Below, in pieces: positions 5,119 through 26,261 of a stretch of 43,104 bases of DNA. Source of the stretch: Candidatus Methylomirabilota bacterium (GTDB taxonomy: Bacteria > Eisenbacteria > RBG-16-71-46). The translations under genes and the position numbers were made by a program. Numbering within the stretch: the stretch's first letter is position 1; each line of letters starts with the position of its first letter. The notes under the pieces were generated by a model, which saw only the letters and a program-made list of their open reading frames with translations, was not told the DNA's origin and did no database searches. The stretch spans positions 1 to 43,104 of the forward strand of contig DATNFC010000017.1 of the NCBI GenBank assembly GCA_035606545.1. Reading direction: 5' to 3'.

Positions 5119-5150
5119 CCGGATGGTTCCGATTCTCGGAACGGGTCCGG
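5119..5150 (+). promoter_or_regulatory. Imperfect hairpin in the 156-bp leader upstream of rfbF
   Basis: In ccggatggttccgattctcggaacgggtccgg, ccgga (5119-5123) pairs with tccgg (5146-5150) and gttccg (5126-5131) pairs with cggaac (5137-5142). The loop is attct. No U-tract follows, so the function is unknown. Confidence 0.2.
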
Positions 5151-5208
5151 GTTCGCGGTCGACCCGGAGAGCCGCGGTGGCGCACCGGATCAGGGAGAGA
5201 GCGGGCGC

Positions 5209-7224: not shown

Positions 7225-7265
7225 CGGTCGGGGCAGCAGGCCGCCAAGGAAGGTAAGGCAACGCC

Positions 7266-8309: not shown

Positions 8310-8836
8310 TCTTCACGGCGCTGCCGCTCGCCGGGGCCCATGTCATCGATCTGGAGCCACGGCGCGACGAGCGCGGCTTCTTCGCGCGGGGTTTCTGTGC
8401 GAACGAGTTCGCGGCGCACGGGCTCAAGACGCAGATCGTGCAGGCGAACCTGTCGCAGAACGTCAAGCGTGGCACCGTGCGGGGCATGCACTACCAGCGT
8501 GCACCGTTCGCCGAGGTGAAGCTCGTGCGCTGCACCCATGGCGCCATCTTCGATGCGATCATCGATCTGCGGCCGGATTCGCCGACGTATCTCAAGTGGA
8601 CGAGCGTCGAGCTGAGCCGGGAGAACCGGCGCATGCTCTACGTGCCCGAGGGCTTCGCGCATGGCTACCAGGCGCTCACCGACGACAGCGAGGTGCTGTA
8701 CCTGGTGACGCAGTTCTACGCCCCCGAGCACGAGGCCGCGATCCGCTGGAACGATCCCCGGTTCGCGATCCGCTGGCCGATCGCGGACGTCGTGCTGTCG
8801 CCCAAGGACGCGGCGCACCCGGACTTCCAGCCGTGA
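8306..8836 (+). CDS. rfbC: dTDP-4-dehydrorhamnose 3,5-epimerase-like cupin (NDP-4-keto-sugar 3,5-epimerase)
   Basis: DERGFFARGF, VRGMHYQ, KLVRCTHGAIFDAIIDLR, LYVPEGFAHGY and FYAPEHEAAIRWNDP parallel RmlC motifs. ATG 8306 overlaps the upstream TGA (ATGA). Confidence 0.92.
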   Translation: MIFTALPLAGAHVIDLEPRRDERGFFARGFCANEFAAHGLKTQIVQANLSQNVKRGTVRGMHYQRAPFAEVKLVRCTHGAIFDAIIDLRPDSPTYLKWTSVELSRENRRMLYVPEGFAHGYQALTDDSEVLYLVTQFYAPEHEAAIRWNDPRFAIRWPIADVVLSPKDAAHPDFQP

Positions 8837-10823: not shown

Positions 10824-12331
10824 CGGGGATCGAGCGCGGCTCTCAAGGCGCGACGCTCTTCCGCGAGGCCCGGCCCGGCCGCCCAGATCGCGAACGGCAC
10901 CAGCACGGCGGCAAGGATCGCGAGTCGGATCGGAAGACCCAGCGACCGGATCGCGAACGCCCCGCCCAGAACCGCGAGCGTTCCGAGCGCGGGCAGGGCC
11001 GCCCGCCGGATCACCGCACGGCCATCCGGCATCGACGGGGCAGCCATGATCATGAGCACGATCAGGTCCACGAGTGCCCTGACCGACCAGACGAGCGCCG
11101 CTCCCGCCGTCCCCGCCCAACGGACTCCCCACCACAGGCCGAGCAGGAACAACGGCATCTCGGCGATGAGCAGCACGCCCACCTTGCGCGGCTGGCCGAC
11201 GGCCTGGATGAGGGCTGATGGAATGAACGAGAGCCCGGTGAAGAACGCGCCGACGGCCAGGAGCTGCATCACGGTCTGCCCGTTCTGCCGGAACGCGGCT
11301 CCGAGCCAGATACCCAGGATGTCCCCGCCGACCACGATCAGGATCATCGTCAGCGGAAACAGCGCGCAGTAGACCTGGCTGAGCCCACGCCGGAACAGCA
11401 TCTGCAGGCGGTCCGGATGCGCCCGCGTGCTCGTCGCGAACGCGGGAAAGAGGACGCTCACCAATGTCCCCGGCAGGATCCACAGCTTGGTGGCGATCTC
11501 CTGCGGCGGCACGTAGAACGCGATCGCACCGACCGATGTCAACGCGCCGATCAGCAGGCGGTCGAGCGAGACGAACAGCGGCATGATGAGGTTGATCACC
11601 GCGAGCCATCCGCCGCTCCTGAGCAGCGAAGCCGCCACCGCGGAGACCCAGCGGAACCGCCCGCGCAGCTCGGGCATCACCGCGACGCAGACCAGCAGGT
11701 GGGCGAACGTGCCCACGAATCGGACCGCCACCAGCGTGCTCACGATCGCCGCAAGCCCGTGCGTGAACGGCAGCACCGCCATGGGCAGGACGAACGACAG
11801 CAGGCTCATGGGGATGCGGATGAGGTTCAGCGCCTTGAAGCGCTGGTAGGCCGCGAGCACGCCGCCCAAGCCGGCGGTCACCAGGACCGCCGGCAGCGAC
11901 ATGGCCAGCAGGTAGAACGCCCCGCGCGTGTCCTGCTCCAGCGCCACCGGAACGTGAAGCGCGTGCTGGACCACCCACGGCGTGGCGATCCCGAGGACCA
12001 GCGCTCCGAGCACGCCCAGCGCGAGCAGCATGATGAGCGCCGTTCCCACGAGGCCCGGCAGCTCCGCCGTGTCCCCGCCGCCGAGACCCTCCGCGACCAC
12101 GCGCGTGAGCGCACGACCGAGGCCGAAGTCGAACAGGGTGAAGTAGCCGATCACGGTCCACGCGAGTGTCAGCACGCCGAATGCCTCGGTGCCGAGCGCG
12201 TGCAGGAGGATGGGCACCGCCACCGCGGCCGCGACCATGGGGATCGCCTGACCGAGGAGGCTCCAGAGCGTGTTGCGCGCGAGCAGCCCCCGGCCCGTCA
12301 GTGCGCCGGCTGAGGGCCTCTGCGGGCTCAT
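10817..12331 (-). CDS. wzx: Polysaccharide flippase, MOP superfamily (Wzx-like)
   Basis: About 12-14 hydrophobic segments. The N-terminus LLARNTLWSLLGQAIPMVAAAVAVPILLHALGTEAFGVLTLAWTVIGYF is typical of Wzx/polysaccharide biosynthesis proteins. ATG 12331 overlaps the stop of the upstream GT (ATGA). The 3' end overlaps the convergent gene by 7 nt. Confidence 0.85.
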   Translation of the reverse strand: MSPQRPSAGALTGRGLLARNTLWSLLGQAIPMVAAAVAVPILLHALGTEAFGVLTLAWTVIGYFTLFDFGLGRALTRVVAEGLGGGDTAELPGLVGTALIMLLALGVLGALVLGIATPWVVQHALHVPVALEQDTRGAFYLLAMSLPAVLVTAGLGGVLAAYQRFKALNLIRIPMSLLSFVLPMAVLPFTHGLAAIVSTLVAVRFVGTFAHLLVCVAVMPELRGRFRWVSAVAASLLRSGGWLAVINLIMPLFVSLDRLLIGALTSVGAIAFYVPPQEIATKLWILPGTLVSVLFPAFATSTRAHPDRLQMLFRRGLSQVYCALFPLTMILIVVGGDILGIWLGAAFRQNGQTVMQLLAVGAFFTGLSFIPSALIQAVGQPRKVGVLLIAEMPLFLLGLWWGVRWAGTAGAALVWSVRALVDLIVLMIMAAPSMPDGRAVIRRAALPALGTLAVLGGAFAIRSLGLPIRLAILAAVLVPFAIWAAGPGLAEERRALRAALDPRY

Positions 12332-13578
12332 CGAAGATCCCGTCTCGCCGCGGTGCCACGCACGGTCGGACTCACGGGCGCGCGCGCATGCACGAGCTCC
12401 CCGTAGACGTCGTCCATGCTCGCGACGATCGAGGGCCACGAGTACCGCGAACGGACCGACTCCACGCCCTGGGCACCCAGCACGCTTCTTCGCGCAGGGT
12501 CGCGAAGCAACGCCTCGAGACGCGCGGCCAGGCCGTCCGGGTCTGCAGGCACGAGCAACACCGGGTCGATGGGCCGGAGGATCTCGGGGCTGGCGCCGCT
12601 GTCGGTCGCGAGCACGGGCGTGCCGGAGGCGAGGCCCTCGATCGTCGAGATCCCGAAGCCCTCCATCGAGCGCGACGGGACCGCGATCAGGTCCGCGGCA
12701 CGGAGCAGCTCGGGCAGATCGGCATCCGGAACACGACCGAGGAAGAGCACGCGCTCATCGAGACCCAGCTCGCTGCGGAGCGCCTCGAGCGCCTGCCGCT
12801 CCGGTCCTGCGCCGCCGATGGCCACGACGAACGGGAGGCCGCGGGCGGCCAGCTTCGCGGCGGCGCGGATCAGGATGTCGATCCCCATCCGCCGCACCAG
12901 CCGGCGCACGCTGACGATCAGGAACCCCTCCTGCGGGACGCTGAGGTGCTGCCGCGCGGCGATGCGGTCCCCCGGCGCGAACCGCGTCAAGTCCAGGCCC
13001 GGCGGGATGATGCGCACCTTCCCGCGCGCGCCCGGCTCGATCGCCTCGACCTGACCGAGGACGAACTGCGTGTGCACGACGACGCGCTCGGCGCGCTGCA
13101 GGCACTGGCGATCCAGCAGCCCGATCGCCCCCGACTTGAGCCGGTCGCCGAGCCCGAGGGGTCGATGCTCTCCCGCGGGAGCGCCGTCCAGTCGTTCGGC
13201 CTCGAACTCGAGGCGATACGCGGCGTGAAAGCTCAGCACCCGCCGCGCGGGAAACGATCCGTTCAAGGCCGGGACGGCGCTCGCGATCTGGTGGGCGTGG
13301 ATGATGTCGAACCGCTCCCCGGCCAGCTCGCGCAGCGCCCGCGCGACGCCCTCGCGAACGGCGAGGAAGAATCGCAGCCCGCGCGCCTTCGCCAGCGGGT
13401 AGCGGCGGATCCGGAAGCCATCGAGCCGCTCCTCGACGGGGAATCCGCCGGTGTCCCCGGCCAGCACCGTCACCTCGTGGCCCGATGCGGCCTGCGCGCG
13501 AGCCATCCCGTGGATGAAGCGTTCCGCGCCCCCGAACACGTCCGGGAACACGAACGTCGCCACGTGGAGGATCCTCAC
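12328..13578 (-). CDS. Glycosyltransferase family 4
   Basis: VRILHVATFVFPDVFGGAERFIHGMA. C-terminal block ADLIAVPSRSMEGFGISTIEGLASGTPVLATDSGASPEIL. GTG 13578 overlaps the upstream TGA (GTGA). The 115-codon upstream extension in the ORF track is Arg/Ala-rich and lies inside the preceding gene. Confidence 0.88.
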   Translation of the reverse strand: MRILHVATFVFPDVFGGAERFIHGMARAQAASGHEVTVLAGDTGGFPVEERLDGFRIRRYPLAKARGLRFFLAVREGVARALRELAGERFDIIHAHQIASAVPALNGSFPARRVLSFHAAYRLEFEAERLDGAPAGEHRPLGLGDRLKSGAIGLLDRQCLQRAERVVVHTQFVLGQVEAIEPGARGKVRIIPPGLDLTRFAPGDRIAARQHLSVPQEGFLIVSVRRLVRRMGIDILIRAAAKLAARGLPFVVAIGGAGPERQALEALRSELGLDERVLFLGRVPDADLPELLRAADLIAVPSRSMEGFGISTIEGLASGTPVLATDSGASPEILRPIDPVLLVPADPDGLAARLEALLRDPARRSVLGAQGVESVRSRYSWPSIVASMDDVYGELVHARAPVSPTVRGTAARRDLR

Positions 13579-16500
13579 GGCACCTGCCCGAGCTTGACCA
13601 GCGCGGCCGCGAGCTCCTGCGCGCCGGGCGACGCCGCGAGCCCGCGGCGGAGCGCGGCGACGGTGGCGTCCTTGTCGCCGGCCTGGAGGTGCACCTGCGC
13701 CTCGAACAGGTAGGCGCGCGCGTTGCCCGGCACGAGCTTCTGCGCGGCCGTGAACGCCGCGAGCGCGCCCGCGGGATCCTGCTTCGCGAGCGCCAGCATG
13801 CCCGCCATCATCTCGGCGTCGCTCCGCACCTGCACGTCGCTCGACCGGCGTGCGCGCTCGATCGCCGCGGCCGAGCCCGGGAGGTCGCCGTCCACGCGCC
13901 GCCGCTCGGCGAGCACCACCCACGCCCGCGCGTTCTCCGGGTCGAACTCCACCGCGCGCTCGAGCGCGGCGCGCGCCTCGGCCTTCAGGCCCTGTCCCAG
14001 CAGTCGAGTGGCCTCGTCGAACGCGGCGCGGCTCCTCGCCCGCGCGGCGCTCGTGGCGATGAGCGCTTCGAGCGCGGCAGCCTCTCCCGGCACGGCGTCG
14101 CGCGCCGCCAGCACGGTGCGCGCAGCATGCGCCGAGTCGTCCTGCTCGAGCAGCCAGCGCGCACGCGCGCCGTACCAGTCGGCGGTCGGCCAGGCCGCGA
14201 ACAACGGTCCCGGTGGCTCTGACGCCACGAACGGCAGCCGCCCGACCACGCCCGGGTGGCCGCTCAACTGCGCGCGGCCCACGTCCACGAGATCCTGCGG
14301 CGCGCGGTACTCCACCACCGGCCGGTCATCGCGGTTGAGCGGCGCGTTGCCGGCGATCGCCTGGAGCGAATCGAGCGGTGCCGCCCAGTACGCCGCGATC
14401 ATCGCCGGGTCCGGGATGCGCGCGCGGTCCAGCGCCTCGCGCGCCGCGGGGGTCCGGAGCCGCGGGAGGTCGAGCGTGCGGCCGGGCGGCGCCGCGACGA
14501 GCAGCAGGTCCACGTTACGCCACACGCAGAACACCTGGCCCTGCGGGAACACGTCGAGGAACGAGTGCAGCAGCGTCGCGAACGTCTCCGGCGACAGCTC
14601 GTAGAGCTGGAGCCACTGGCAGAACACGCCATCGGGCTCGAGCCGCGCGCGCACACGGCGGTAGAAGTCCACGGTGAAGAGGTTGTTGACGCCCGCGATC
14701 CAGGGGTTCGAAGGCTCGGAGACGATGAGCCCGTAGCGGCCCGTTCCGTACAGCAGATGGGTGCGCGCATCGCCCAGGATGAGTCGCGTGCGTGGGTCAT
14801 CCAAAGGGTCCTCCCCTTTCGCGTGGAACCAGCGCGAGGCGGCGATGACGCCGGGCTCGAGCTCGACGACGTCGGTACTGCCCGCGCCGCCCGCGAGCAC
14901 GCTCGCCGTGGTGACGCCCGAGCCGTGGCCGATCACCAGCGCGCGCGCGCCGGAGTCGGCGAGCACCGCGGGCAGGAGCCCGAGCAGCACCTGCGTCTCC
15001 ATGTCGAGCGTGCTCGCGTCCACCTTGCCGCCGACGCGCAGCCACAGCTCGCGGTTCTCGGCGTCGGTGCAGAGGATGACCGAGGCGTTGATGCCCTCGT
15101 GGTAGTAGAGCACGCGATCATTGGAAGTGGCGCGGCGCACGGCGTCCGCCGCGCCGCCGGCGAACGCGTTCACCTTCACCGCCTGCGACGGTCGGTAGAC
15201 GCCGGACGTCATCAGCGTGGGCTCCCACGCCGGCGCGATCACCACGAACAGCACGGTCGCGAACGCCGCGAGCCCGCCGATCATGAGCGGCATGCCCTTC
15301 AACTCGCGGCGGCGCCACGCCGTCAGCAGCGCGATCACGCCGATCACGCCCGCGAGCGCCACGCCGGTCACGTGCGTGCCCTGGATGCCGAGCGAGGGCA
15401 CGAGCACGAAGCCCGCGACCAGCGAGCCCGCGATCGTGCCGGCGGTGTTGACGGCGTAGGCCAGGCCCGCGGCGTGGCCGCCGTCGCGGCTCTGGAGCAG
15501 GCGCGTCGCGACCGGGAAGATCGCGCCCAGCAGCACGCACGGCGCGCCGATCATCAGCGCCACGGTGCCCACCTCGGCGAGCAACAGTCCGCGCCAGTCG
15601 GCGCCGGCGCTCGTGCCCATGTCGAGCATGCGCTGCGGTAGCCCCGGGAACGCCTGGATCGCGAGCGCCGCGGTGGCGGCGAGCACGAGCTGGAGCGCGC
15701 CGAAGCCGGCGAGCGTGCCGACGCGCGCGATGCGCGCGCCCACGAGTGCCGCACCCACCGCGATCCCGAGCAGGTAGATGCCGAGCACCGCGGAGAACGA
15801 ATAGACCGACGAGCCGAACACGAGACCGAAGAGCCGCACCCACGCCATCTGGAACGCGAGCGCGCCGAATCCCGAGAGCGCGAACAATGCGGCCATGATG
15901 CGGCGCGTGGCGGGGTCGAGCGGCGCGGGTGCGGGCGTCGCGGCGGGCGTTTCCGCCGCGGCGACGCCTGCGGCCGGCGAGCCGCGTCCCGCGCTCCACG
16001 CCACCGCCGCCACGCCGGCGTTGAGCGCAGCGGCGACGAACGTGGTGGCGGCGAGCCCTACACCCGGCAATAGTACGAAGCCCGCGGCGAGCGAGCCCGC
16101 GACCGCGCCCAACGTGTTGAGCGCGTAGAGCCGGGCCAGCCCCGCCCCGACCCGGTCGCGCTCGACGTGTGCCACCAGCACCGGCAGCGTGGCGCCCATC
16201 AGCGCCGCGGGCGGCAGCAGCGCCAGCATCACCAGCACGAGCCGCGCGCTCGCGAACGCCACGCCCTCGCCGCCGAAGCTGCGGTACAGCTGCCCGATCA
16301 GCGGATCGCTCGCGCGTAGCGCCGGCAGGATCAGGAGCCCGATGAGCCCCACGCCCAGCTCGAGCGCCGCGTAGGTACGAGCCCCATTCCCCCGCCGTGC
16401 GAGCGGCACGCCGAGCAGCCGCGCGCCGAGTGCGAGGCCCAGCAGGAACGACGCCACCACCGCGGCCACGGCGTGAAGCGAGCCACCGAGCAGGTAGGCC

Positions 16501-16607
16501 AGCTCCTTGGACCACACGATCTCGTAGAGCAGGCCCGCGGCGCCCGAGAAGAAGAAGCACAACGTCGCCCAGGCCGGCAGCGTCGACGCGCGTGGGGATG
16601 TTGCCAT
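13575..16607 (-). CDS. Fused polytopic membrane domain / spermidine-synthase-like (class I MTase fold) domain / C-terminal TPR repeats
   Basis: The N-terminal ~480 aa has many TM helices (AWATLCFFFSGAAGLLYEIVWSKEL...). The central region, VLYYHEGINASV...ALVIGHGSGVTTASVL...VVELEPGV...LIVSEPSNPW...FCQWLQLYE, matches the fused MFS/spermidine synthase family pattern. The C-terminus has TPR-like repeats (AEARAALERAVEFDPENARAWVVLAE, AQKLVPGNARAYLFEAQVHLQAGD). ATG 16607 shares 1 nt with the upstream TGA. Confidence 0.85.
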   Translation of the reverse strand: MATSPRASTLPAWATLCFFFSGAAGLLYEIVWSKELAYLLGGSLHAVAAVVASFLLGLALGARLLGVPLARRGNGARTYAALELGVGLIGLLILPALRASDPLIGQLYRSFGGEGVAFASARLVLVMLALLPPAALMGATLPVLVAHVERDRVGAGLARLYALNTLGAVAGSLAAGFVLLPGVGLAATTFVAAALNAGVAAVAWSAGRGSPAAGVAAAETPAATPAPAPLDPATRRIMAALFALSGFGALAFQMAWVRLFGLVFGSSVYSFSAVLGIYLLGIAVGAALVGARIARVGTLAGFGALQLVLAATAALAIQAFPGLPQRMLDMGTSAGADWRGLLLAEVGTVALMIGAPCVLLGAIFPVATRLLQSRDGGHAAGLAYAVNTAGTIAGSLVAGFVLVPSLGIQGTHVTGVALAGVIGVIALLTAWRRRELKGMPLMIGGLAAFATVLFVVIAPAWEPTLMTSGVYRPSQAVKVNAFAGGAADAVRRATSNDRVLYYHEGINASVILCTDAENRELWLRVGGKVDASTLDMETQVLLGLLPAVLADSGARALVIGHGSGVTTASVLAGGAGSTDVVELEPGVIAASRWFHAKGEDPLDDPRTRLILGDARTHLLYGTGRYGLIVSEPSNPWIAGVNNLFTVDFYRRVRARLEPDGVFCQWLQLYELSPETFATLLHSFLDVFPQGQVFCVWRNVDLLLVAAPPGRTLDLPRLRTPAAREALDRARIPDPAMIAAYWAAPLDSLQAIAGNAPLNRDDRPVVEYRAPQDLVDVGRAQLSGHPGVVGRLPFVASEPPGPLFAAWPTADWYGARARWLLEQDDSAHAARTVLAARDAVPGEAAALEALIATSAARARSRAAFDEATRLLGQGLKAEARAALERAVEFDPENARAWVVLAERRRVDGDLPGSAAAIERARRSSDVQVRSDAEMMAGMLALAKQDPAGALAAFTAAQKLVPGNARAYLFEAQVHLQAGDKDATVAALRRGLAASPGAQELAAALVKLGQVP

Positions 16608-17302
16608 CACACCTTCCGGAACACCGCCGAGCCCCAGGTGTCGGGCAGCTCGATCACGCGCTCGGTCCTGCCCGCGAGGAACTCGGTGAGCGCCCGCCGG
16701 CAGGCGCCATTCGACTCGGGGTTGTTGAAGTCGTGGACGAAGCAATAACCGCCGCTCGCGAGCCGCGGGTAGAAGAATTCCAAGCCCGCGAGGGTGGGTG
16801 CAAAGACGTCGAGGTCGAGCAGCACGAACGCGAACGTGCGCTCCTCGAGCCCCGCGGTCGTGGCCGGGAAATAGCCGGCGTGGATGATCGCGTTCGCGCC
16901 GGCGCCCACCGCCTGCTTCACCGTCGCCTCGCTCGTGGCCTGGAAGCGCGCATCGTTCGCATTCTCCGGCTCGCGGTCGTGCGCGGCGAAGCCCGTGAAC
17001 GTGTCGAACAGGTGGAGCGTGCGCTCGGGCGCGCAGGCGGCGAGGAACCGACTCGTGGCCCCGCGGTAGACGCCCACCTCGGCGAAATCGCCCTGGATCC
17101 CGTCCTGCTGCAGCGTGCGCACGGCGAGCGCCAGGCTCGCGTAGCGTGCCGGGTCACCGGAATCCCTTACCAACTTCGCGATCTCGCCGCCGTAGGTCGG
17201 GAAGCGCAGCGTCTCGCGATCGGGGAACAGTCGCCGCCGCACGTGACGCCCGGCCACGAGCAGGCCCATGCGGTCGAGCCACAGCGCCACGCGCGAGCTC
17301 AC
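16607..17302 (-). CDS. TylF/MycF-family (macrocin-type) SAM-dependent O-methyltransferase
   Basis: GDFAEVGVYRGATSRFL (SAM motif I) and VLLDLDVFAPTLAGLEFFYPRLASGGYCFVHDFN match the TylF-family metal/SAM-binding blocks. Confidence 0.85.
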   Translation of the reverse strand: MSSRVALWLDRMGLLVAGRHVRRRLFPDRETLRFPTYGGEIAKLVRDSGDPARYASLALAVRTLQQDGIQGDFAEVGVYRGATSRFLAACAPERTLHLFDTFTGFAAHDREPENANDARFQATSEATVKQAVGAGANAIIHAGYFPATTAGLEERTFAFVLLDLDVFAPTLAGLEFFYPRLASGGYCFVHDFNNPESNGACRRALTEFLAGRTERVIELPDTWGSAVFRKV

Positions 17303-17441: not shown

Positions 17442-20400
17442 CTAGGCCCCGTCGCTGTCGCCGCTCGGCACGAGGTCGAAGTCGCCGGCGAGCACGCGCT
17501 CGAACCGGCCCGTGCGCCAGCCGCGTACGGCGTCGCGCACGAGCGGCGACGGCGTGCCGCGGTAGCGACGCACGATCGTGGGCGCGGGCGACGGCGCGCC
17601 CGCGAGCGCTTCCGCCGCCTGACGGGTCAGTCCGGCCTCGCCATCCGGGGACCCGCCGGAGGCGGGTGCGGGCACGAGCGGCTGCGGCAGCACGCGCACG
17701 CGCACGCTCGCGCGCTTGATGCCGCCGTCGGCGTTGCTCCCCCACTCGAGCACGTGCAATCCGTCTTCTTGCATGAGCACGATGTAGGACGAGAACCCAG
17801 AAATCGCAAGCCATACCGTGTCGCCGGAATGGCGCATGCTGGGTTTCAAGACGGCGATGCGCATGCCGCGCTGGCGCGCCCAGGCCTCGTACATGGCGGC
17901 GATGCGGCGCGAGAACTCCTGCTCGCCGCTGCGGTCGGGGCCGTCCGGGCCGGCCTGCACGTAGAGGAACGCATCGCGCGGGCCCGTGGTCATGGCCTCG
18001 TGGGCGGCGGCCTCGAGCAGCAGCATCTGCTGGGCAAGCCGCGCCACCATGTTGCGCGGCCACACCTGGCGCTGCGCGGCGCCGTCGCCGTCGAGCCGGG
18101 CGAGCAGCGAGCGGGCCGAGCGGGCGCCGGCCTCGATGCGGTCCATGTACTCGGCACGGCCCAGCACCTCGAAGCGGTCGCTCCGCTGCCAGAAGCCGTC
18201 GGTCGCGGGCATGGCGAGCCAGCGCGCCTTCGCCTCGCTCCACTCCGGCCCGTCGACACGCGCGCCGAAGCGCTGGAGGCTCGCGCGCAGCTCCTGCATC
18301 TCGGCCGCGGTGCCGTGCGCGTCCCAGGCGATCGCGCGCAGGTCCGCGCCGGGTCGCGCCGCGATGCCGGCCGCGGTGAGCACGCTCGCGGCACTCGGCG
18401 GCGCGTCGGGGTCCACGAACTCCACCGCCAGCGCGTCGCCGTCGGTGCGCACGAACAGGAACTGGTCGCCCTCGGGAACGCGGCGCTCGACGATCGTGCG
18501 TGCGAGCGGCGCGAGCAGGTAGCGCTCGAGGCTGCGCTTCAACGGCCGCGCGCCCAGGTCGGTGGTGAAGCCGCGGTCGAGCAGGAAGTCGATGGCTCCC
18601 TCTTCGATCTCCACCGCCCACTCGCGCCGGCGCAGGCCGCGGCGCGCGGAGGCGTCCGCGATCTCCTTCTGCAGGATCTTGCGCATGACGTCGCGCGTGA
18701 ACGGCCGGAACACCACGACGCGATCGAGGCGGTTCCGCAGCTCGGGCGCGAACGTGCGGCTCACCGAGCGCTCCACCATGGCGGCGCTGAAGCCGGCTTC
18801 CGAGCCTTCGGCGAAGCCCAGCCGCTCGCCCGAGGCGAGCATCGCGCCCAGGTTCGAGGTCAGGATGATGATGCTGTTGCGGAAATCCGCCGTCTCGCCC
18901 GCGGCGTCGGTCAGCCGGCCGTCGTCGAACACCGACAGGAACAGGTTCCAGATCCGCGGGTGCGCCTTCTCGAACTCGTCGAGCAGCACCACGGAAAACG
19001 GCTGGCGGCGGATCGCCGCCGCGAGCGAGCCCGCACCGGTGCCGCCCAGGTTCGCCGCGCCGGTCACGCGCTCCAACCCCAGCCCGTCGGCCAGCTCGCT
19101 CATGTCCAGCCGCAGCAGGCGATCTTCGGAGCCGAAGAGCCAGGTCGCGAGCGCTTTGGCGAGCTCGGTCTTGCCGGTTCCCGTGGGGCCCGCGAACAGG
19201 AACACGCCGTAGGGGCGCGCCGGGTCGGTGACGCCGGCCTTCAGCAGTGCCACGCGCTCGACGAGCGCGCTCACCGCGTCCGGCTGGCCGATGACGCGCT
19301 CCTCGAGCTTCGCGCGCAGCGCCTCGAGATCGAGCGCGCGCTTCTCGTCCAGCAGCTCCTCGGGAAGCCCGGTGAGGGACGACACCGCCGTCAACAGATC
19401 CGCGTGCTGCAGCTTCACCTCCGAGGCCTCGGGGCCCGCGGGCGCGACCGCGGTGACGGCGAGGTCGAGCATGCGCAGCACGCCGCCCGGCGCGCGCATG
19501 CTCGAGAGGTACTGGCGCGAGAGCTGCGCGGCCTCGTCCTGGAGCCACGGCTCGACGCCGACGCGGCGCTCGCGCGCGGTGCGTTCCGCCCACTGCTTCA
19601 AGAGCGCAGCCACGTCGGCGTCGCGCCACGGCGCCACGCGCACGATCTCGAACAGCCGGCCGATCTCGGGCCGCTCCGCGAGCAGGCGGTCGAGCGTGCC
19701 CGGCCGGGTCTCGCCCAGCGCGAGGATCTCACCCGACTCGAACGCCGGCATCAGCTGCTCGAGCGCGCCCGTGGGCGACTGCATCGCGCGGCCGCTCCAC
19801 AGCAGCTGGTGGAAGTCGGGCACGAGCCACAGCGACCGGGGCTCGGCGGCGAGCTGCTTGCGCACCTCGAGCAGGCGCCGCTCGAGCATGCCGACGAACG
19901 ACATGCCGGCGTTGAGCTGCGACGCCCCGGCCTCGAACACGCGCCAGCCGTCGCGCGAGAGGTGCGCGGCGACGCTGCGCGCGAGCGCGGTCTTGCCGAC
20001 GCCGGACTCGCCCACCACGAGCACCGGTCGCGGCGGCTGCGACGTGAGCGCCTTCATCACCTTGTCGAAGCACTCGGCGAGCGCTCCGGTCGTGAACACG
20101 GGCGGCTCGGGCATCTTGCCGCGCTCGTGCCACTGGCCGATGCCCTTCAGGTCGCCGAGGCTCTCGAGATCGGGCGGGGTCATGCCGGTGCGCGGGGGCA
20201 CACGCGGGCCCGACTGTTGCGCCGCCTTGAGGGTGCTGACGAACGGCTCGACGAGCGCGGGGTCCTGCTCCTGGAGCACGGCCTCGAGCAGCTCCTCGAT
20301 CCGCCCGGGCGACGGCAGCTCCACCCCCTCGAGCGTCAGCGGGAAGCGCGCCGCGCGCCGGCGCAGGAAGCGCTCCAACGAGACCGCGTGGCCGGTGCTC

Positions 20401-20915
20401 GCCCACTGCCGGTCGAGGCGCACGAGCAGACGGCCCGCGAGCGTGGGGTCGTCCGCGTGCCAGGCCTCGAGCACGCGCAGCACGCCGTCGCCGTTCCACG
20501 GGTGGAAGCGGTTGAGCTGCGCCCAGAGCTGCGGCTCGAGCGCCTCGTCACGCGGCCGCACGCACAGCGCGTCCAGCGCCGCGATCGCCGGGTAGAGCCG
20601 CTCGCCCTGCACCAGTCCCAGCAGCAGCTCGCCGGGCACGTTGGCATCGGTGAGCAGCTTCACCGCCTCGCGATAGCCGGGCAGCGCCACCAGGTGCTCG
20701 GGGCGCGTGACCTCCGGCGAGACCTGCGTGATCTCGAACAGCAGCATGTAGAGCTGCCGGAGCAGCGGGTCTGTCATGCCGCGGTCGGGGCCCTCGGCCT
20801 GCGGCTGGCGGACCGGCAGCGCCGGACCGGGCTGGCCCTGGTTGCGCCGGCGGTTGTACCACGCGAGCGCCAGGATCGCGGCGAGCGCGACGAGAATGCC
20901 GAGGCTGCTGTTCAT
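17442..20915 (-). CDS. Membrane-anchored Clp/Hsp100-type double AAA+ ATPase with a C-terminal GGQ-less release-factor-2-like module
   Basis: ATG 20915. The TM helix is SLGILVALAAILALAWY. D1 Walker A is GESGVGKT. D2 has GPTGTGKTELAKALA, VVLLDEFEKAHP, IIILTSNLG and GARPLKRSLERYL. The C-terminal blocks FWQRSDRFEVLGRAE, FLYVQAGPDG, AAMYEAWARQRGMRIAVL, DGLHVLEW and IVRRY...LVRD...RTGRFERVLAGDFD parallel RF2. The 3474-nt frame is uninterrupted. Confidence 0.9.
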   Translation of the reverse strand: MNSSLGILVALAAILALAWYNRRRNQGQPGPALPVRQPQAEGPDRGMTDPLLRQLYMLLFEITQVSPEVTRPEHLVALPGYREAVKLLTDANVPGELLLGLVQGERLYPAIAALDALCVRPRDEALEPQLWAQLNRFHPWNGDGVLRVLEAWHADDPTLAGRLLVRLDRQWASTGHAVSLERFLRRRAARFPLTLEGVELPSPGRIEELLEAVLQEQDPALVEPFVSTLKAAQQSGPRVPPRTGMTPPDLESLGDLKGIGQWHERGKMPEPPVFTTGALAECFDKVMKALTSQPPRPVLVVGESGVGKTALARSVAAHLSRDGWRVFEAGASQLNAGMSFVGMLERRLLEVRKQLAAEPRSLWLVPDFHQLLWSGRAMQSPTGALEQLMPAFESGEILALGETRPGTLDRLLAERPEIGRLFEIVRVAPWRDADVAALLKQWAERTARERRVGVEPWLQDEAAQLSRQYLSSMRAPGGVLRMLDLAVTAVAPAGPEASEVKLQHADLLTAVSSLTGLPEELLDEKRALDLEALRAKLEERVIGQPDAVSALVERVALLKAGVTDPARPYGVFLFAGPTGTGKTELAKALATWLFGSEDRLLRLDMSELADGLGLERVTGAANLGGTGAGSLAAAIRRQPFSVVLLDEFEKAHPRIWNLFLSVFDDGRLTDAAGETADFRNSIIILTSNLGAMLASGERLGFAEGSEAGFSAAMVERSVSRTFAPELRNRLDRVVVFRPFTRDVMRKILQKEIADASARRGLRRREWAVEIEEGAIDFLLDRGFTTDLGARPLKRSLERYLLAPLARTIVERRVPEGDQFLFVRTDGDALAVEFVDPDAPPSAASVLTAAGIAARPGADLRAIAWDAHGTAAEMQELRASLQRFGARVDGPEWSEAKARWLAMPATDGFWQRSDRFEVLGRAEYMDRIEAGARSARSLLARLDGDGAAQRQVWPRNMVARLAQQMLLLEAAAHEAMTTGPRDAFLYVQAGPDGPDRSGEQEFSRRIAAMYEAWARQRGMRIAVLKPSMRHSGDTVWLAISGFSSYIVLMQEDGLHVLEWGSNADGGIKRASVRVRVLPQPLVPAPASGGSPDGEAGLTRQAAEALAGAPSPAPTIVRRYRGTPSPLVRDAVRGWRTGRFERVLAGDFDLVPSGDSDGA

Positions 20916-21018: not shown

Positions 21019-21970
21019 AGGCGCTCGCCGCCCGCCACTCGGCCAGGACGTCGCCGAGCGTCGAGGCGAACGGGAGTTGCACGCTCCAGCCCACCTCGGC
21101 CGTGGTGAGCGAGGGATCGCCCACGAGCCACGGTGTGTCGGCGGGACGCAGGCGCGCGGGGTCCACCTCGACGGTGAGCTTCACGCGCGACATTCTCACG
21201 AGCTCCTTTAGCAGGTCGGCGAGCAGCACGCCCTCGCCGCGGCAGAGGTTGTAGACGGCGCCCGCGCGCCCGCGCTCGAGCAGAGCGCAGTAGCCCGCGA
21301 CGATGTCGCGGACGTCACTGAGGTCGCGCGTCACCTCGAGGTTCCCGACGCGCAGCACCGGCTCGGCCTTCCCCGCCTCGATCGCCGCGACCTGCTGGGC
21401 GAACGCAGGCACCACGAAACGCGGCGTCTGCCCGGGCCCGGTGTGGCCGAACGGTCGCGCGCGCACCACGTCGAGCCGGTGCGTGGCTGCGTACTCCGCC
21501 GCGATCTGCTCGGCGGCCGCCTTGCTCACGGCGTACGGGCTCACGGGCGCGAACGCGTGCGTTTCGGCGGCGCGCGTGCCCGGCGCGATCGGGCCATAGA
21601 CCTCGCTCGTGCTCACGACCACGACGCGCGCCGCAGGCGCGTGCGCGCGCACGGCCTCGAGCAGCGTCCACGTGCCGGTGACGTTGGCGCGGAACGTGGC
21701 CTCGGGCGCCTCGAACGACTTGGCGGCGCTGCTCTGGCCCGCGAGGTGGACGACCGCGTCGAGCGGCGCGGCCGCCAGCGCCGCCTCGGCTTGAGCCGGC
21801 AGTGAAAAGTCGGCCTCGTGCCAGTCCGCGAGCGGCGTGGCTTTCGCAGGCGCACCCAGCCCCGCGCCGCGAACGGTCGCGCCCCGCGCGACGAGCGCAC
21901 GCACGAGGTGCGGGCCGACGAAGCCGCCGGCGCCGGTGACGAGCACGCGCGCGGACCTGAGAGCGGTCAC
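21017..21970 (-). CDS. rmd: GDP-4-dehydro-6-deoxy-D-mannose reductase-like SDR (Rmd type)
   Basis: RVLVTGAGGFVGPHL, VSTSEVYG, SPYAVSKAAAE, ARPFGHTGPGQ, VGNLEVTRDLSDVRD, GAVYNLCRG and VDPARLRPAD follow the P. aeruginosa Rmd pattern as I recall it (ARPFNHIGPGQ, DPARMRRAE). GTG 21970 overlaps the upstream TGA (GTGA). Confidence 0.82.
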   Translation of the reverse strand: MTALRSARVLVTGAGGFVGPHLVRALVARGATVRGAGLGAPAKATPLADWHEADFSLPAQAEAALAAAPLDAVVHLAGQSSAAKSFEAPEATFRANVTGTWTLLEAVRAHAPAARVVVVSTSEVYGPIAPGTRAAETHAFAPVSPYAVSKAAAEQIAAEYAATHRLDVVRARPFGHTGPGQTPRFVVPAFAQQVAAIEAGKAEPVLRVGNLEVTRDLSDVRDIVAGYCALLERGRAGAVYNLCRGEGVLLADLLKELVRMSRVKLTVEVDPARLRPADTPWLVGDPSLTTAEVGWSVQLPFASTLGDVLAEWRAASA

Positions 21971-23520
21971 GGCGCCACCCCGCGACGGGCGAGCCGCGTG
22001 AGCTCGCCCCAGGCGACGTGGCGCGTGGCGAGCAGCACCACGAGCGCCACGACGCCCGCGACGCCGCTCGACGCGACCAGCGCGACCCAGGGCGAATGCA
22101 GCGCGCGTTCGACCGACGCGCCAGCGGCGAAACCCGCCGCGATCGCGAGCGCCGGGAACACGAACGGCTCCCACAGCGCGTGCGCTGCCGGCCAGTGCTG
22201 GTCGCGCGTCAACCGCAGCGCGAGCCACAGCGCCCCGACCAGGTTCGCGACCGTGATCGCGGCGAGCGCGCCGGCCAGCCCGAGCCGCGGCACGAGCAGC
22301 ACGCCGAGCCCCGCGTGGAGCGCGAGCGCCAGCGCCGACCACTCGAGCTCGATCGACGTGCGCCCGACGCCGCGCGCGATCGCGCTCGAGACGCCGCCCG
22401 CCACCGCGGCGAACGCCGCGAGCGCGAGCCCGCGCAGCGCCAGCGCTGCGTCCGGCTCAGGATGCCCGAGCCAGGCCGCGAACAGCGATGGCGCCGACCC
22501 GACGAGTGCGGCGGTGACAACGGCGGCGAGGCCGGTCACGAACCGGCCGGCGCGGCGGTGCAGCTCGCGCAGGCGGTCCGCGGCCGCCTGCGCGTGGAGC
22601 GCCGAGGCCTCGGGGATCATCGCCACGAGCAGCAGCTGCGAGAACGTGCTGCACGCGGTCGACACCCGGAGTCCCAGCTCGTACGGCACCACGGACGCCA
22701 GCGACAGCATGCGCACGAGCAGCACCTTCCCGAGCTGCTGGTGCATGACCGCGATCCCGTTGGCCAGCTGGAGCGGCATGCCGAAGCCCATCGCCTCGGG
22801 AAGGCGCGAGCGCGCCTGGCTCACCGTGCCCCAGCGCAGGCCCGGCGCGCCGCGCGCCACGAGCACGAGGCCCAACGCGAGTGCGACGAGCCAGCCCACG
22901 ATCACGGCGAGCAGACAGGCGGCGAACGTTTCGGGCTGGCGGAGCGCCACGAGCAACGCCGCCACCTGCACCAGCGACACCGTCAGCGTGACCACGTTCG
23001 CGAGGTCGAAGCGATCCCAGGCCTGGAGCAGGGCCGCCGTGGTGTTGGTGACGCCCGAGAGCAGGAACACTGGCGCCCCGGCGAGGAACGCGAGGCGGGC
23101 CCATGCGCGGGCGTCACCGTGGATATGCAGGATGTCGAGCACCGGCTCGCGCAGCGCCAGCACCAGCAGCAGCCAGACGATCCCGAGCGCCCCGTAACCC
23201 AGCACCGCGAGCGTCGCGTACTCGCCGGCCTCGTTCCCGGCGCCGCGCGCGCGCGCCGCGGCGCCGTAGCGCAGCGCCACCTGCGCGAAGCCGAGATCCA
23301 GCGACCCCATCCAGCCCGCGAGCGCGTAGAACAGCGACCACACGCCGAAGCCCTCGGGCCCGAGCGCGCGCACGAGCGACGGCGTGAGCAGCAGCCAGGC
23401 GAGGATCGCGACGACGCGGCCGCTCGCCGAGTGGAACGAGTTGCGCGCCAGGCGCACGCCCATCCCACGCGGCGGGGTACCCGCACGCTTGCGTGCGGGT
23501 CCGGCGGCCGATTCGTTCAT
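21967..23520 (-). CDS. Polysaccharide flippase / MOP-superfamily membrane protein (second Wzx-like)
   Basis: Multiple TM segments. LARNSFHSASGRVVAILAWLLLTPSLVRALGPEGFGVWSLFYALAGWMGSLDLGF is typical of polysaccharide biosynthesis (PST) proteins. ATG 23520. Confidence 0.82.
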   Translation of the reverse strand: MNESAAGPARKRAGTPPRGMGVRLARNSFHSASGRVVAILAWLLLTPSLVRALGPEGFGVWSLFYALAGWMGSLDLGFAQVALRYGAAARARGAGNEAGEYATLAVLGYGALGIVWLLLVLALREPVLDILHIHGDARAWARLAFLAGAPVFLLSGVTNTTAALLQAWDRFDLANVVTLTVSLVQVAALLVALRQPETFAACLLAVIVGWLVALALGLVLVARGAPGLRWGTVSQARSRLPEAMGFGMPLQLANGIAVMHQQLGKVLLVRMLSLASVVPYELGLRVSTACSTFSQLLLVAMIPEASALHAQAAADRLRELHRRAGRFVTGLAAVVTAALVGSAPSLFAAWLGHPEPDAALALRGLALAAFAAVAGGVSSAIARGVGRTSIELEWSALALALHAGLGVLLVPRLGLAGALAAITVANLVGALWLALRLTRDQHWPAAHALWEPFVFPALAIAAGFAAGASVERALHSPWVALVASSGVAGVVALVVLLATRHVAWGELTRLARRGVAP

Positions 23521-23526
23521 CCGCCG

Positions 23527-24297
23527 CTAGATGAACCGCCGGCCGCGCGTGCGGAACTCGCGCACTGCGGCCGCGTCGGGATAGGTGAAGTAGCTCGCGC
23601 GCGTCATGTCCATGGGCTCGCGCGGGGCGTCGCCGCGCTCGATGCGCTCCAGGGCCTCGAGCAGCGCGTGCCGGCCCACGTCCACCTTCGAGCGCAGCAC
23701 GAGCCGGTGCACGGTGTCGCGCGGCTCGATCGTGACGCGGCGCTGGAGCAGCACGTCGCCGTGGTCCAGCTGCTCGTCCATCCAGTGCACGGTGACGCCG
23801 GTCTCGGGCTCGCCCTTCGCCAGGACCCAGAACGAGGGGAAGATGCCCTGGTAGCGCGGCAGCAGCGCGCCGTGCAGGTTGATGGCGCCCTTCACCGGCA
23901 CGGCGAGCAACGCGCCCGAGAGCTTCTGCGGGCAGGCGAGCGACACCAGCAGGTCGACGCCGCGCGCACGCAGCGCGGCGATGAACTCGGGCGCGTTCAC
24001 CTTCTCCACGTGCTCGACGGGAACGCGGGCGCGGCGCGCCGCGGATGCGACCGAGTGGCTCGAGCGTAGCGGCAGCACGCGCGAGAGCAGGTCGAGAGCG
24101 CGGTACCACGTCAGGTTCACGACCTGGAACGCGAAGTCGCGCGCGCCCATCATGCGCAGGAAACGCAGCGCGCGGCCGGCCTGCATCTCACCCGGCACGA
24201 TCGCAACGCCCACCACGTCGCGGCGCTGCTCGAGCAGCAGGTCCAGGATCCGCGGGATGTAGAAGGCGTCCTCCTGCGTGAGGACCTGGATGCGCAC
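23527..24297 (-). CDS. Formyltransferase (Fmt/ArnA N-terminal-domain-like)
   Basis: INLHGALLPRYQGIFPSFW (Asn/His of the formyltransferase catalytic site) and GVTVHWMDEQLDHGDVLLQ (catalytic Asp). GTG 24297. Confidence 0.85.
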   Translation of the reverse strand: MRIQVLTQEDAFYIPRILDLLLEQRRDVVGVAIVPGEMQAGRALRFLRMMGARDFAFQVVNLTWYRALDLLSRVLPLRSSHSVASAARRARVPVEHVEKVNAPEFIAALRARGVDLLVSLACPQKLSGALLAVPVKGAINLHGALLPRYQGIFPSFWVLAKGEPETGVTVHWMDEQLDHGDVLLQRRVTIEPRDTVHRLVLRSKVDVGRHALLEALERIERGDAPREPMDMTRASYFTYPDAAAVREFRTRGRRFI

Positions 24298-24307
24298 GCG
24301 CGGTGGC

Positions 24308-25177
24308 CTAGAGTCCTGCGCGGGTGAACTCTTCGGCGAACGCCTCGCGCATGGGCACGAACGCGAAGTCCGCCAGCAGCTGTCGCGTCTTTTCCGCAGT
24401 GGAATCCAGCCGGTGGTAGTGCGTGAACCCGGCGAGCCGGCGCGGCACCTTGATCCGCGGCTGGGCGGTGTCGAACTCCCACGGGTGGACGTAGAACACG
24501 AGCCCGTGCGACTCGTGGCTCAGCAGGTGGCGTCCGAGCGCGCGCGTGACGCTGTAGGGATAGAGCCGGAAGTAGCCGCCACCGCCCAACGGCAGGTTCA
24601 CGCCCAGCGCGCTCTCCGGGCCCGGAACGCGCACCGTCGAGAGCGGCACCTCGAACACCTTCATACCCGACGGCGTGCGCATCCAGCCCGGACGGCGTAC
24701 CGCCTCGGGGATGCCGTAGCGGTAGTTGTGCGTCGGGAACACGCTCGAGTCGTAGATGAAGCCCTCGTCGAGAAGGATGTCGAGCGCCCACAGCGCGTCC
24801 TGCGTGATCGAGAAGAACGGCGCGCGGTAGCCGAGCACCGTCGTGCCGGACTGGTCCTCGAGGATCTGCTTCGAGCGCCGGAGCTCGTCGCGGAACTGCT
24901 CGGGGCCCTGGCGGTAGACGAACCGGTGCGAGTAGCCGTGCGACGCGATCTCGTGGCCCATCGCCGCGAGCCTCGGCACCAGGTGCGGCGAGCGCTCGGC
25001 CTGCCAGCCGAGCACGAAGAACGTGGCGCGCACGCCGGCCCGGTCGAGCAGCTCGAGCAGCACCTCGAGCCCCTTCTCGATCCGCGACGGGTAGCGGCCC
25101 CACTGGTCCATGTCGATCTCGAGGCCCTGGTACCAATCCTCGAGGTCGACGCTGAACACGTTCCGCACCACGCGCAC
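24308..25177 (-). CDS. Polysaccharide deacetylase family protein with DUF3473-type C-terminal region (EPS-locus type)
   Basis: FSVDLEDWYQ, ATFFVLGW, GHEIASHGYSH, GYRAPFFS and LPLGGGGYFRLYPY are hallmarks of the NodB-fold deacetylases found in exosortase/EPS loci. GTG 25177 is preceded by GAGG. Confidence 0.88.
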   Translation of the reverse strand: MRVVRNVFSVDLEDWYQGLEIDMDQWGRYPSRIEKGLEVLLELLDRAGVRATFFVLGWQAERSPHLVPRLAAMGHEIASHGYSHRFVYRQGPEQFRDELRRSKQILEDQSGTTVLGYRAPFFSITQDALWALDILLDEGFIYDSSVFPTHNYRYGIPEAVRRPGWMRTPSGMKVFEVPLSTVRVPGPESALGVNLPLGGGGYFRLYPYSVTRALGRHLLSHESHGLVFYVHPWEFDTAQPRIKVPRRLAGFTHYHRLDSTAEKTRQLLADFAFVPMREAFAEEFTRAGL

Positions 25178-25239
25178 GGCCGCCTCGGGCGCGCTCCACG
25201 CCGGGGCGAGCGGGCGGCGGGCGAGCGAGTCAGGAAGCG

Positions 25240-25264
25240 GCGACTCCGCGGGAATCGCGGTCGC
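25240..25264 (-). terminator. Candidate hairpin downstream of gmd
   Basis: Minus-strand gcga-ccgcg-attcc-cgcgg-ag-tcgc forms 9 bp with a 2-nt bulge. It lies in the 127-bp gap between gmd and the deacetylase gene. No U-tract. Confidence 0.2.
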
Positions 25265-25304
25265 GCCCTCGCTCTGGATCCCGAGGCCGGTCCCTATGCC
25301 CGTG

Positions 25305-26261
25305 TCACCGCGAACGCCAGTACTCCAGCATGTCCCGCAGCGTCTGCTCGAACGGGATCGTGGGCTGCCAGCCGGTCGCGGCGACGAACTTCGAGTTGTC
25401 GCCGAGCAGGATCGGAACGTCGGAAGGGCGCAGTCGCGCCGGGTCCTGTTTCACCTCGATCTTCACTTTCGTCAGGGCGAGGAGCATGTCGAGGGTCTCA
25501 CGAATGGTCCAGCAGCGGCCCCGGCACAGATTGTAAACCTCGCCGGGCTCGCATTTCTCGAGCGCCAGCACGTAACCGCGCACCATGTCGCGCACATCGG
25601 TGAAATCCCGCTTCGCGTCGAGGTTGCCGACGCTCAGGACCGGAGCCTTCTTCCCCGCCTCGATGTCAGCGATCTGTTTGGCGAAATCGCTGGCGACGAA
25701 CACGGGGCCGCGCCGGGGCCCCTCATGATTGAACCCGCGCGTGCGCACGCTGTCCACCTTCCAGCTCATCCAATATTGGTACCCCAGCATGTCCTGCGCC
25801 ACCTTGCTGACTGCGTAGGGCGACAGCGGCCGGAGCGGATTGGTCTCGCGGATCGGCGTCTCGTCCGGCAGGACCATGCCGTACTCCTCGGACGAACACG
25901 CGAGCTGGATCCGGGTCCCGAGCCCCAGCCGGCGGACGGCCTCGAAGATGTTCACCTGGGCGAGGATGTTCGTCATGAGCGACTCGGTCGGGGCCACCCA
26001 GGACGTGGGCACGAACGACTGCGCCGCGAGGTGGAAGATCCAGTCCGGCTTGACCTTGGCGACGGTGTCGAACGTCGAGGTGGCGTCCCTCAGGTCGCAC
26101 TCGTGGAGCGCGATCTGGCCCGGCTTCAGGTGCTCGATGTTCTCGGTACGACTACGCCAGCGCCAGATCCCGTGGAGCTCGCAGTCGCCGCGGGTGAGGA
26201 GGTAGTCCACGAGGTGGCTGCCGGCGAACCCGGTGACGCCGGTGATCAACACCCTGCGCAT
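25305..26261 (-). CDS. gmd: GDP-mannose 4,6-dehydratase (short form)
   Basis: RVLITGVTGFAGSHL, LAAQSFVPTSW, ACSSEEYG (Ser-Glu dehydratase signature), SPYAVSK, GFNHEGPRRG, GNLDAKRDFTDVRD and DPARLRPSD. ATG 26261 is preceded by GGAGAG. Confidence 0.88.
   Translation of the reverse strand: MRRVLITGVTGFAGSHLVDYLLTRGDCELHGIWRWRSRTENIEHLKPGQIALHECDLRDATSTFDTVAKVKPDWIFHLAAQSFVPTSWVAPTESLMTNILAQVNIFEAVRRLGLGTRIQLACSSEEYGMVLPDETPIRETNPLRPLSPYAVSKVAQDMLGYQYWMSWKVDSVRTRGFNHEGPRRGPVFVASDFAKQIADIEAGKKAPVLSVGNLDAKRDFTDVRDMVRGYVLALEKCEPGEVYNLCRGRCWTIRETLDMLLALTKVKIEVKQDPARLRPSDVPILLGDNSKFVAATGWQPTIPFEQTLRDMLEYWRSR

Follow-up and report, generated by a model that had tools for sequence, protein, structure and literature searches.

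The 43,104-nucleotide (nt) stretch of DNA analyzed here, referred to below as the window (contig DATNFC010000017.1 of assembly GCA_035606545.1, placed by GTDB in the Eisenbacteria), carries a gene for a Clp-type AAA+ ATPase whose C-terminal part is a diverged, true homologue of peptide chain release factor 2 (RF2). The gene, termed Clp-RF in the following, occupies positions 17442..20915 (-) and encodes 1157 amino acids (aa) in a single open reading frame (ORF). From the ORF and its Pfam and NCBIfam matches it was resolved into a predicted transmembrane (TM) helix, an alpha-solenoid, two AAA+ domains (D1 and D2), a D2-small domain, a flexible linker and the RF2-like module. The original prediction had placed an RF2-like module at 17445-18305; its homology stood, but it is not free-standing, since these positions (-) encode the last 287 aa (871-1157) of the ORF and form the C-terminal domain of the ATPase. 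The proposed extent also needed a small correction, with the module beginning slightly upstream at aa ~857 (nt 18347) and including RF domain 1 as well.

Pfam matches on the 1157-aa protein comprised AAA_16/P-loop (aa ~283-390), AAA_2 (567-732), ClpB_D2-small (740-818) and PCRF (926-1056). Among the NCBIfam models, ClpA (TIGR02639) was collinear through its residues 195-726 with aa 284-815, at ~310 bits and far under the ClpA/ClpB cutoffs of 993-1232. The G+C content of the ORF was 0.95 at third (GC3) and 0.50 at second (GC2) codon positions, the same coding signature as that of the other real genes in the window, in which overall G+C content is 70-74% and many spurious ORFs are present.

Release factor homology of the C-terminal module

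Searched in isolation against Pfam, the module matched PCRF only, with 27.9 bits and an E-value of 2.4e-6 (gathering cutoff 24), and in a phmmer search of the PDB sequences RF2 chains alone were found (residues 123-214, E 3e-4). A profile of 87 homologues matched RF2 residues 11-203 in the PDB with an E-value of 6e-17 and RF1 with 7e-12, and the module was nearer to RF2 than to RF1 in bit scores as well (64 vs 46). Alignment of the family with RF1 and RF2 by HHalign (E. coli reference sequences translated from NC_000913) was collinear and continuous over 281 columns, with a probability of 98.3% and an E-value of 2e-14, well above noise. All five alignment blocks that had been proposed against RF2 were in register with the authentic E. 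coli sequence in the profile-profile alignment. An AlphaFold2 model of the last 340 aa reached a mean predicted local distance difference test score (pLDDT) of 89.2 and a predicted template modelling score of 0.84. Its 50 best Foldseek matches in the PDB were RF2, RF1 or mitochondrial RF1 throughout, with free E. coli RF2 (1gqe, E 5.6e-13) as the best, which answers in favor of the RF1/RF2 fold the earlier question of whether the region might adopt a different one.

The module keeps RF domains 1, 2 and 4, which are homologous to those of RF2 and RF1 and share their fold, and lacks domain 3 with its GGQ motif, the distal part of helix alpha7, the switch loop and the stop-codon-reading motifs. 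In the HHalign map aa 878-974 corresponded to RF domain 1, aa 975-1082 to domain 2 and aa 1114-1150 to domain 4, namely its C-terminal strands and helix. No counterpart was seen for two RF segments, the GGQ-bearing core of domain 3 (RF1 224-267/RF2 241-284) and the distal alpha7 leading into the switch loop (RF1 278-298/RF2 295-315). The claim that the codon-recognition scaffold is retained and domain 3 lost held for this gene and for every homologue examined: in all 228 members with both anchors the span from HVLE to VRRYR was short, at 32-64 aa (median 50) compared with 120-121 aa in E. coli RF1/RF2. As predicted, no GGQ is present in the module, and Pfam RF-1 (PF00472) gave no match here or in any of the 87 family members, 84 of which matched PCRF. 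The single GGQ among the 228 members (P0229) is incidental and lies in a variable domain-2 loop.

A variable, disordered tether (18348..18410 (-), aa ~836-856; AlphaFold pLDDT ~50), poorly conserved in the family, connects the ATPase to the RF-like module. Domain 1 (17994..18347 (-)) is a helical bundle of aa ~857-974, delimited by HHalign to RF1 2-98 and RF2 11-119, by the AlphaFold helices and by conservation, and contains the near-invariant motif GFWxSxxRFxVLGxAEYMDRIExG. Domain 2 (17670..17993 (-), aa 975-1082) was assigned from Pfam PCRF, the alignment of RF2 123-214 and the per-column family table described below. Within it lie a degenerate alpha5 tip, QAGPDGPDRSGEQE (17916-17957 (-)), and a degenerate SPF/PxT loop, WGSNADGGIKR (17712-17744 (-)), confirming that the SPF position reads WGSNADGG. 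The site of RF domain 3 (GGQ), helix alpha7 and the switch loop is occupied by a 31-aa Pro/Ala/Gly linker with a short helix, LTRQAAEALAGA (17577..17669 (-); HHalign gap map, helix at AlphaFold model residues 276-289), in agreement with the linker originally placed at nt ~17580-17681. The domain 4 tail, IVRRYRGTPSPLVRDAVRGWRTGRFERVLAGDFDLVP (17466..17576 (-), aa 1114-1150), is in register with RF1 306-340 and RF2 322-356, and its strands and helix were modelled at pLDDT >90.

To compare retained and lost elements, a column-by-column table of 63 full-length members against RF1/RF2 was used. Scaffold residues common to the family and the RFs were invariant or nearly so, comprising F983, F1001, A1002, M1008, Y1009, W1012, L1047, E1050, G1052, H1054, R1068, V1073 and V1075 as well as R1116, Y1118, V1126, D1128, V1141, G1144 and D1147 in the domain 4 tail. 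They follow the RF2/RF1 patterns F..V, F-A, M-Y..W-A, L..E.G.H, R, V.V.P, R.Y, V.D and V-L.G..D. The tail, identical in 62-63 of 63 members at most positions, is among the most conserved segments of the whole protein and, together with domain 1, forms the most conserved part of the module; its family motif, IVRRYRExPSPLVRDSVRGWRTG[KR]LERVLxGDFDL, holds ~8 invariant basic residues in 25 positions. The module is under strong purifying selection, with invariant arginine-rich motifs of its own. The module is also much less acidic than the RFs: domain 1 carries a net charge of ~+2, the values for E. coli being -13 (RF1) and -16 (RF2).

The elements by which release factors engage the codon showed the opposite trend. 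At the alpha5 tip (GGxE; RAGTGGDEA in RF1, QAGSGGTEA in RF2) the family is unconserved and carries a 3-residue insertion, with D/E plus A/S/T in place of GG. The PxT/SPF position varies and is shortened by one residue in 45 of the 63 members, the I/R-H-T of the RxHTS strand is deleted after the conserved Arg, and the positions corresponding to the RF2 switch loop (316-321) are variable without any Trp, RF2 295-315 being gone. In RF2 the SPF motif reads the codon, domain 1 contacts the L11 stalk, and Trp319 of the switch loop (aa 315-323) stacks on A1492 (PMC5378476). Unlike RF1 and RF2, the module thus has neither the GGxE tip, the SPF/PxT motif nor the RxHTS histidine, has no Trp319 counterpart, and forms the C-terminal end of an AAA+ ATPase instead of standing alone. 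Since the entire GGQ domain is absent, it cannot hydrolyse peptidyl-tRNA or release peptides, in line with the original prediction. That it does not read stop codons, previously considered probable, is now almost certain from the loss or variability of the alpha5 tip, PxT/SPF, RxHTS and switch loop.

The AAA+ rings, the putative ClpP-docking loop and the N-terminus

Ring motifs were compared with those of E. coli ClpA and ClpB over 63 family members. D1 (19416..20069 (-), aa ~283-500; Pfam AAA_16, collinear with NCBIfam ClpA) contains the Walker A motif GESGVGKT (19989-20012 (-)) and a pore loop, AGMSFVGMLERR (19875-19910 (-)), in which the aromatic residue is kept. The family pattern of this loop is AG-x-x-[Y/F]-[I/V]-G, with an aromatic residue in 60 of 63 members (Y in 45, F in 15). 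The Walker B motif is degenerate and reads LWLVPDFH (19809-19832 (-)); its Asp-Glu pair is changed to Pro-[Asn/Asp] in 61/63, and the family reads V-P-[N/D]-F-H. Because Walker A is kept and the acidic pair of Walker B is lost, D1 should, following established AAA+ knowledge, bind nucleotide without hydrolysing it.

D2 (18720..19217 (-), aa 567-732; Pfam AAA_2, E 1.9e-42) matched the D2 of Thermus thermophilus ClpB with an E-value of 1e-71 and ClpC with 1e-62. Its catalytic motifs are intact: Walker A (GPTGTGKT, 19167-19190 (-)), Walker B (VVLLDEFEK, 18966-18992 (-)), sensor 1, the Arg finger and sensor 2 do not vary across the family, nor do the segments TSN, NRLDRVVVFRP and GARPLKR. The D2 pore loop, GAANLGGTGAGSLA (19020-19061 (-)), is shortened and has no GYVG tyrosine, and no family member carries an aromatic residue there. 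A ClpB_D2-small domain (18462..18698 (-), aa 740-818; PF10431, E 4.7e-14) follows. Labour is split between the two rings in an unusual manner throughout the family, D1 combining a dead Walker B with an aromatic pore loop and D2 combining intact catalysis with the absence of an aromatic residue, an arrangement that appears odd for a presumed ClpP-feeding translocase.

A putative ClpP-docking loop, GERLGF (18813..18830 (-), aa 696-701; family pattern G-x-x-[I/V/L]-G-F), was recognized at the sequence level. Its positions 699-701, located after D2 sensor 1, read I (28), V (21) or L (14), followed by G in 63/63 and F in 61/63 (L in the other two). This [ILV]-G-F aligns exactly with the IGL tripeptide by which E. 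coli ClpA docks to ClpP, and ClpB has GEL at this place. The best PDB match of the consensus loop segment was an engineered ClpB chimera bearing the ClpA ClpP loop (5ofo; BAP), aligned to ERKSIGLIHQD; the consensus also aligned with ClpC across the loop, whereas native ClpB chains aligned only after it. These alignments suggest a ClpA/ClpC-like partnership with ClpP, which we regard as putative.

The family thus resembles ClpA and ClpC in its two AAA+ rings collinear with ClpA 195-726, its D2 catalytic motifs and D2-small domain, and the [ILV]-G-F corresponding to ClpA IGL and ClpC VGF. The D1-D2 spacing is likewise collinear with ClpA, without a coiled-coil insertion (M-domain). It differs from them in the Asp-Glu to Pro-Asn/Asp change of D1 Walker B, in the missing GYVG tyrosine of D2, in the additional 300-aa RF-like C-terminal domain, and at the N-terminus, where no Clp_N (PF02861) match was found and a TM helix and alpha-solenoid are present instead. 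The TM-like helix, SLGILVALAAILALAWY (20856..20906 (-), aa 4-20; Kyte-Doolittle 19-residue window 1.93), is followed by RRRN; it is a heuristic prediction, and by the same heuristic an N-terminal hydrophobic helix was predicted in 67 of 85 full-length representatives. Next comes an all-alpha helical-repeat domain of the armadillo/HEAT/tetratricopeptide repeat (TPR)-like type (20211..20768 (-), aa ~50-235; AlphaFold2 pLDDT 88.2). This domain had no Pfam match and resembled PDB solenoids only weakly and generically (best E 0.28), and a specific fold was rejected on account of this generic similarity. The N-terminal ~290 aa (20046-20915 (-)) diverge much faster than the RF-like tail, with ~20% identity between phyla, and a word-indexed protein search with this region recovered 15 close relatives only. 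A membrane anchor at the N-terminus of an AAA+ machine coupled to proteolysis is also found in FtsH, which is hexameric; for Clp-RF the coupling is putative. FtsH combines one AAA ring with a fused M41 metalloprotease, while the Clp-RF family has two rings, the putative ClpP loop and no protease domain, and Pfam gave no Peptidase_M41 match in the 1157-aa protein.

Distribution of the family and surroundings of the gene

With the C-terminal 340 aa as query, more than 266 proteins were retrieved; almost all contain AAA_2, D2-small and PCRF, and at their source they are annotated as 'ClpC', 'AAA family ATPase' or 'PCRF domain-containing protein'. Scanning 1.84 billion cluster representatives (50% identity) with phmmer gave 722 matches at E<=1e-3 and 467 at E<=1e-10, and every full-length relative among them was 1050-1290 aa long with the module at the extreme C-terminus. 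Relatives were present in 297 species, counted by scanning a single genome of each GTDB species for patterns; as exact peptide patterns were used, this number is a lower bound. The best 80 of these 297 loci all came from metagenome-assembled genomes (MAGs), and among them the closest relatives (75-87% identity) belonged to Candidatus Eisenbacteria. Further carriers were Acidobacteriota (Pyrinomonadaceae, Blastocatellia, Terriglobia), Gemmatimonadota, Calditrichota, Planctomycetota and Krumholzibacteriia, as well as single bins assigned to Acidimicrobiia, Thermodesulfobacteriota, 'Deltaproteobacteria' and Verrucomicrobiia. The carriers are mostly uncultured soil bacteria.

With the whole 1157-aa protein as tblastn query, the full architecture was found in one frame at ~60 of the best 80 loci. 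The first three genomic contexts had suggested a two-gene system consisting of a D1 protein and a D2-RF protein; this was rejected, these being long-read MAG contigs and the gene being continuous in ~60 genomes. Two or more overlapping genes or internal frame changes were seen at L001 (= L062), L003, L005, L093, L048 and L026 (ERZ250395xx-ERZ250396xx, 'MFD' bins). Such split homologues on long-read MAG contigs probably reflect indel or frameshift errors, the short-read genomes having one frame. Stand-alone PCRF-only proteins were likewise dismissed, since one candidate (P0022) has an overlapping upstream AAA gene on a long-read contig and the other (P0015) lies at a contig edge. In P0023 a truncated HisG (ATP phosphoribosyltransferase) runs straight into the RF-like module without any AAA+ part; this junction was seen once, on a 1581-nt JGI contig, and was set aside as an alternative fusion, being probably a chimeric assembly and possibly a rare fusion. 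In a Pyrinomonadaceae MAG the last ~39 codons occur once more as an isolated copy (L054:3287-3403), ~1 kb downstream of the full gene and 72% identical to query aa 1111-1149, which may be a duplicated fragment or an assembly artefact.

Clp-RF is a stand-alone chromosomal gene without a conserved operon partner. When the flanking ORFs of 80 genome loci were clustered, no neighbour was common beyond one lineage (maximum 16 loci). The Eisenbacteria relatives (L010-L022) share downstream ORFs as a lineage-restricted cluster. In the window the gene is surrounded by a polysaccharide/envelope biosynthesis region (1-12439 and 21967-26261) with two Wzx-like flippases, glycosyltransferases of family GT4, sugar-nucleotide epimerases/dehydratases, a formyltransferase and a polysaccharide deacetylase/DUF3473 protein, and no functional link between Clp-RF and these neighbours was apparent. 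Directly downstream (16607-17302 and 13575-16745 (-)) are two genes, one for a TylF-type O-methyltransferase (231 aa) and one for a multi-pass membrane protein of 1056 aa that combines a spermidine-synthase-like domain with TPRs at its C-terminus; the two ORFs overlap by ~140 nt as listed, so one start codon is probably mis-set. Membership in a defence system was rejected, as the PADLOC matches (DolB, PDC-M37B) span the generic AAA_2 core only.

Possible roles of the fused module

An RF scaffold with an arginine-rich and highly conserved surface suggests a partner that is itself conserved and contains RNA, and the ribosomal factor-binding or A site would be the most likely partner of a dead RF module. 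The original proposal that the module could still occupy an A-site-like surface is plausible. In the reading we favor, the module would dock a membrane-anchored, probably ClpP-coupled ATPase onto ribosomes without terminating translation, a proposal that falls a little short of being probable. Its placement would resemble that of RF2, with domain 1 toward the L11 stalk and domains 2/4 toward the 30S decoding region, and docking would bring the ATPase, and ClpP via the conserved [ILV]-G-F loop, to the ribosome. In complexes with ArfA, RF2 occupies an empty A site with its SPF motif touching nothing (PMC5378476). As most members have an N-terminal membrane helix, the clients would most likely be ribosomes at the membrane, either stalled or with an empty A site, or proteins attached to such ribosomes. 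The basic tail and the charge shift are consistent with nucleic-acid binding, and we further count the flexible ~20-aa tether, the fixed family architecture, the ClpP-type loop and the membrane helix in favor of docking.

Several observations weigh against this proposal. The loops that would point into the decoding centre, namely the alpha5 tip and the SPF loop, show the lowest conservation within the module, and the switch loop that anchors RFs to A1492/A1913 is gone, so that the docking geometry must differ from that of an RF if the module docks at all. The ATPase carries the module at its D2/ClpP-proximal end, well away from the D1 entry pore, and D2 is without the pore-loop tyrosine expected of a processive ClpP-feeding translocase. 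None of the clustered flanking ORFs at the 80 loci is translation-, ribosome- or ClpP-related.

The loss or variability of all known codon- and rRNA-anchoring elements, the position of the module next to the putative ClpP-docking face and the lack of translation-related neighbours could also be explained if the RF fold had been exapted off the ribosome, either to bind substrates or adaptors (protein or free RNA) or as an autoregulatory or assembly domain that acts on the AAA+ ring or gates ClpP docking. Clp ATPases often use accessory domains to bind adaptors or substrates, which adds to the plausibility of such a role. However, the complete three-domain RF scaffold including domain 1 is kept and modelled with high confidence, the module sits on a flexible and variable tether and not at a fixed interface, and the conserved arginine-rich surface with its basic charge shift fits RNA binding better than an intramolecular contact; we consider exaptation possible, if rather doubtful. 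The unusually good conservation of domain 1, which in RFs faces RF3 and L11, would also be expected of a decoy that mimics RF2 and captures RF3, ArfA/BrfA-type adaptors or RF-targeting toxins and phage proteins for removal by the unfoldase and ClpP. Such a mimic would hardly be faithful, given that the charge of domain 1 has moved ~15 units from that of the RFs. The strand that pairs with ArfA (RF2 213-217) is moreover partly deleted, the ArfA contact Trp319 has no counterpart, the PrmC target GGQ is missing and no partner gene is linked, which makes a decoy improbable.

That some homologues appear split into two genes, and that one contig has the HisG-module junction, could finally be taken to indicate a non-functional sequence: a piece of a decaying RF gene that became fused by chance, a pseudogene, or an artefact of assembly or of a frameshift. 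The same one-frame fusion is nevertheless present in ~60 independent genomes from several phyla, with 85 full-length cluster representatives, many invariant columns and a GC3 of 0.95 over the whole ORF, and long-read MAG contigs or contig edges account for the split versions. Conservation effectively refutes this explanation.

If the docking proposal is extended, Clp-RF might represent an unrecognised bacterial ribosome-quality-control machine, a membrane-anchored ClpP-coupled unfoldase that senses stalled or empty-A-site ribosomes, probably those engaged at the membrane, through a Pelota-like dead RF domain and goes on to extract or degrade nascent chains, trapped factors or components of the ribosome. 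We consider this wider role unlikely as it stands; if true, it would be a single-polypeptide bacterial counterpart of the eukaryotic rescue pairs made of an RF-like protein and an AAA+ ATPase. The pairs Pelota/Dom34-ABCE1 and Vms1/ANKZF1-Cdc48 are alike in concept only, combining an RF-derived protein with an ATPase on ribosomes, and imply no family membership. Their RF-like proteins have an unrelated fold (aeRF1 superfamily), they employ other ATPases and they are experimentally established, whereas ribosome binding of Clp-RF is inferred. Dom34 is without the catalytic Gln (PMC6514570). The Clp-RF family would join both functions of such a pair in one polypeptide. Among RF-family proteins, PrfH and ArfB/ICT1 also fall short of the four-domain architecture and act outside normal termination, but their truncation is the opposite one: they retain the GGQ domain and are missing either domain 1 or all of domains 1, 2 and 4, the reverse of what is seen here.

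The match to PCRF is in itself not new, as automatic annotation already names relatives 'PCRF domain-containing protein'. NCBIfam holds no model specific for the Clp-RF family, neither a Clp/AAA+-PCRF fusion nor a bacterial RF lacking GGQ was found described in the searchable full-text literature, and a survey of RF evolution built around the GGQ domain does not mention the family (PMC6514570). The family fails the defining features of a release factor (GGQ, decoding motifs, switch loop) as well as those of a canonical ClpA/ClpC (Clp_N, D1 Walker B, D2 pore loop). To our knowledge, none of the bacterial RF relatives reported to date (RF1, RF2, PrfH, ArfB/ICT1) has lost the GGQ hydrolase. An RF2 derivative that lacks GGQ, does not decode and is conserved in hundreds of species would correspond in bacteria to Dom34/Pelota. 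Its permanent attachment to an unfoldase that is membrane-anchored and probably coupled to ClpP suggests a direct physical path leading from the ribosome to the protease; we know of no such path in bacteria. Even without ribosome binding, the family would represent a clear re-use of a translation-factor fold as an accessory domain of a Clp ATPase that is itself unusual.

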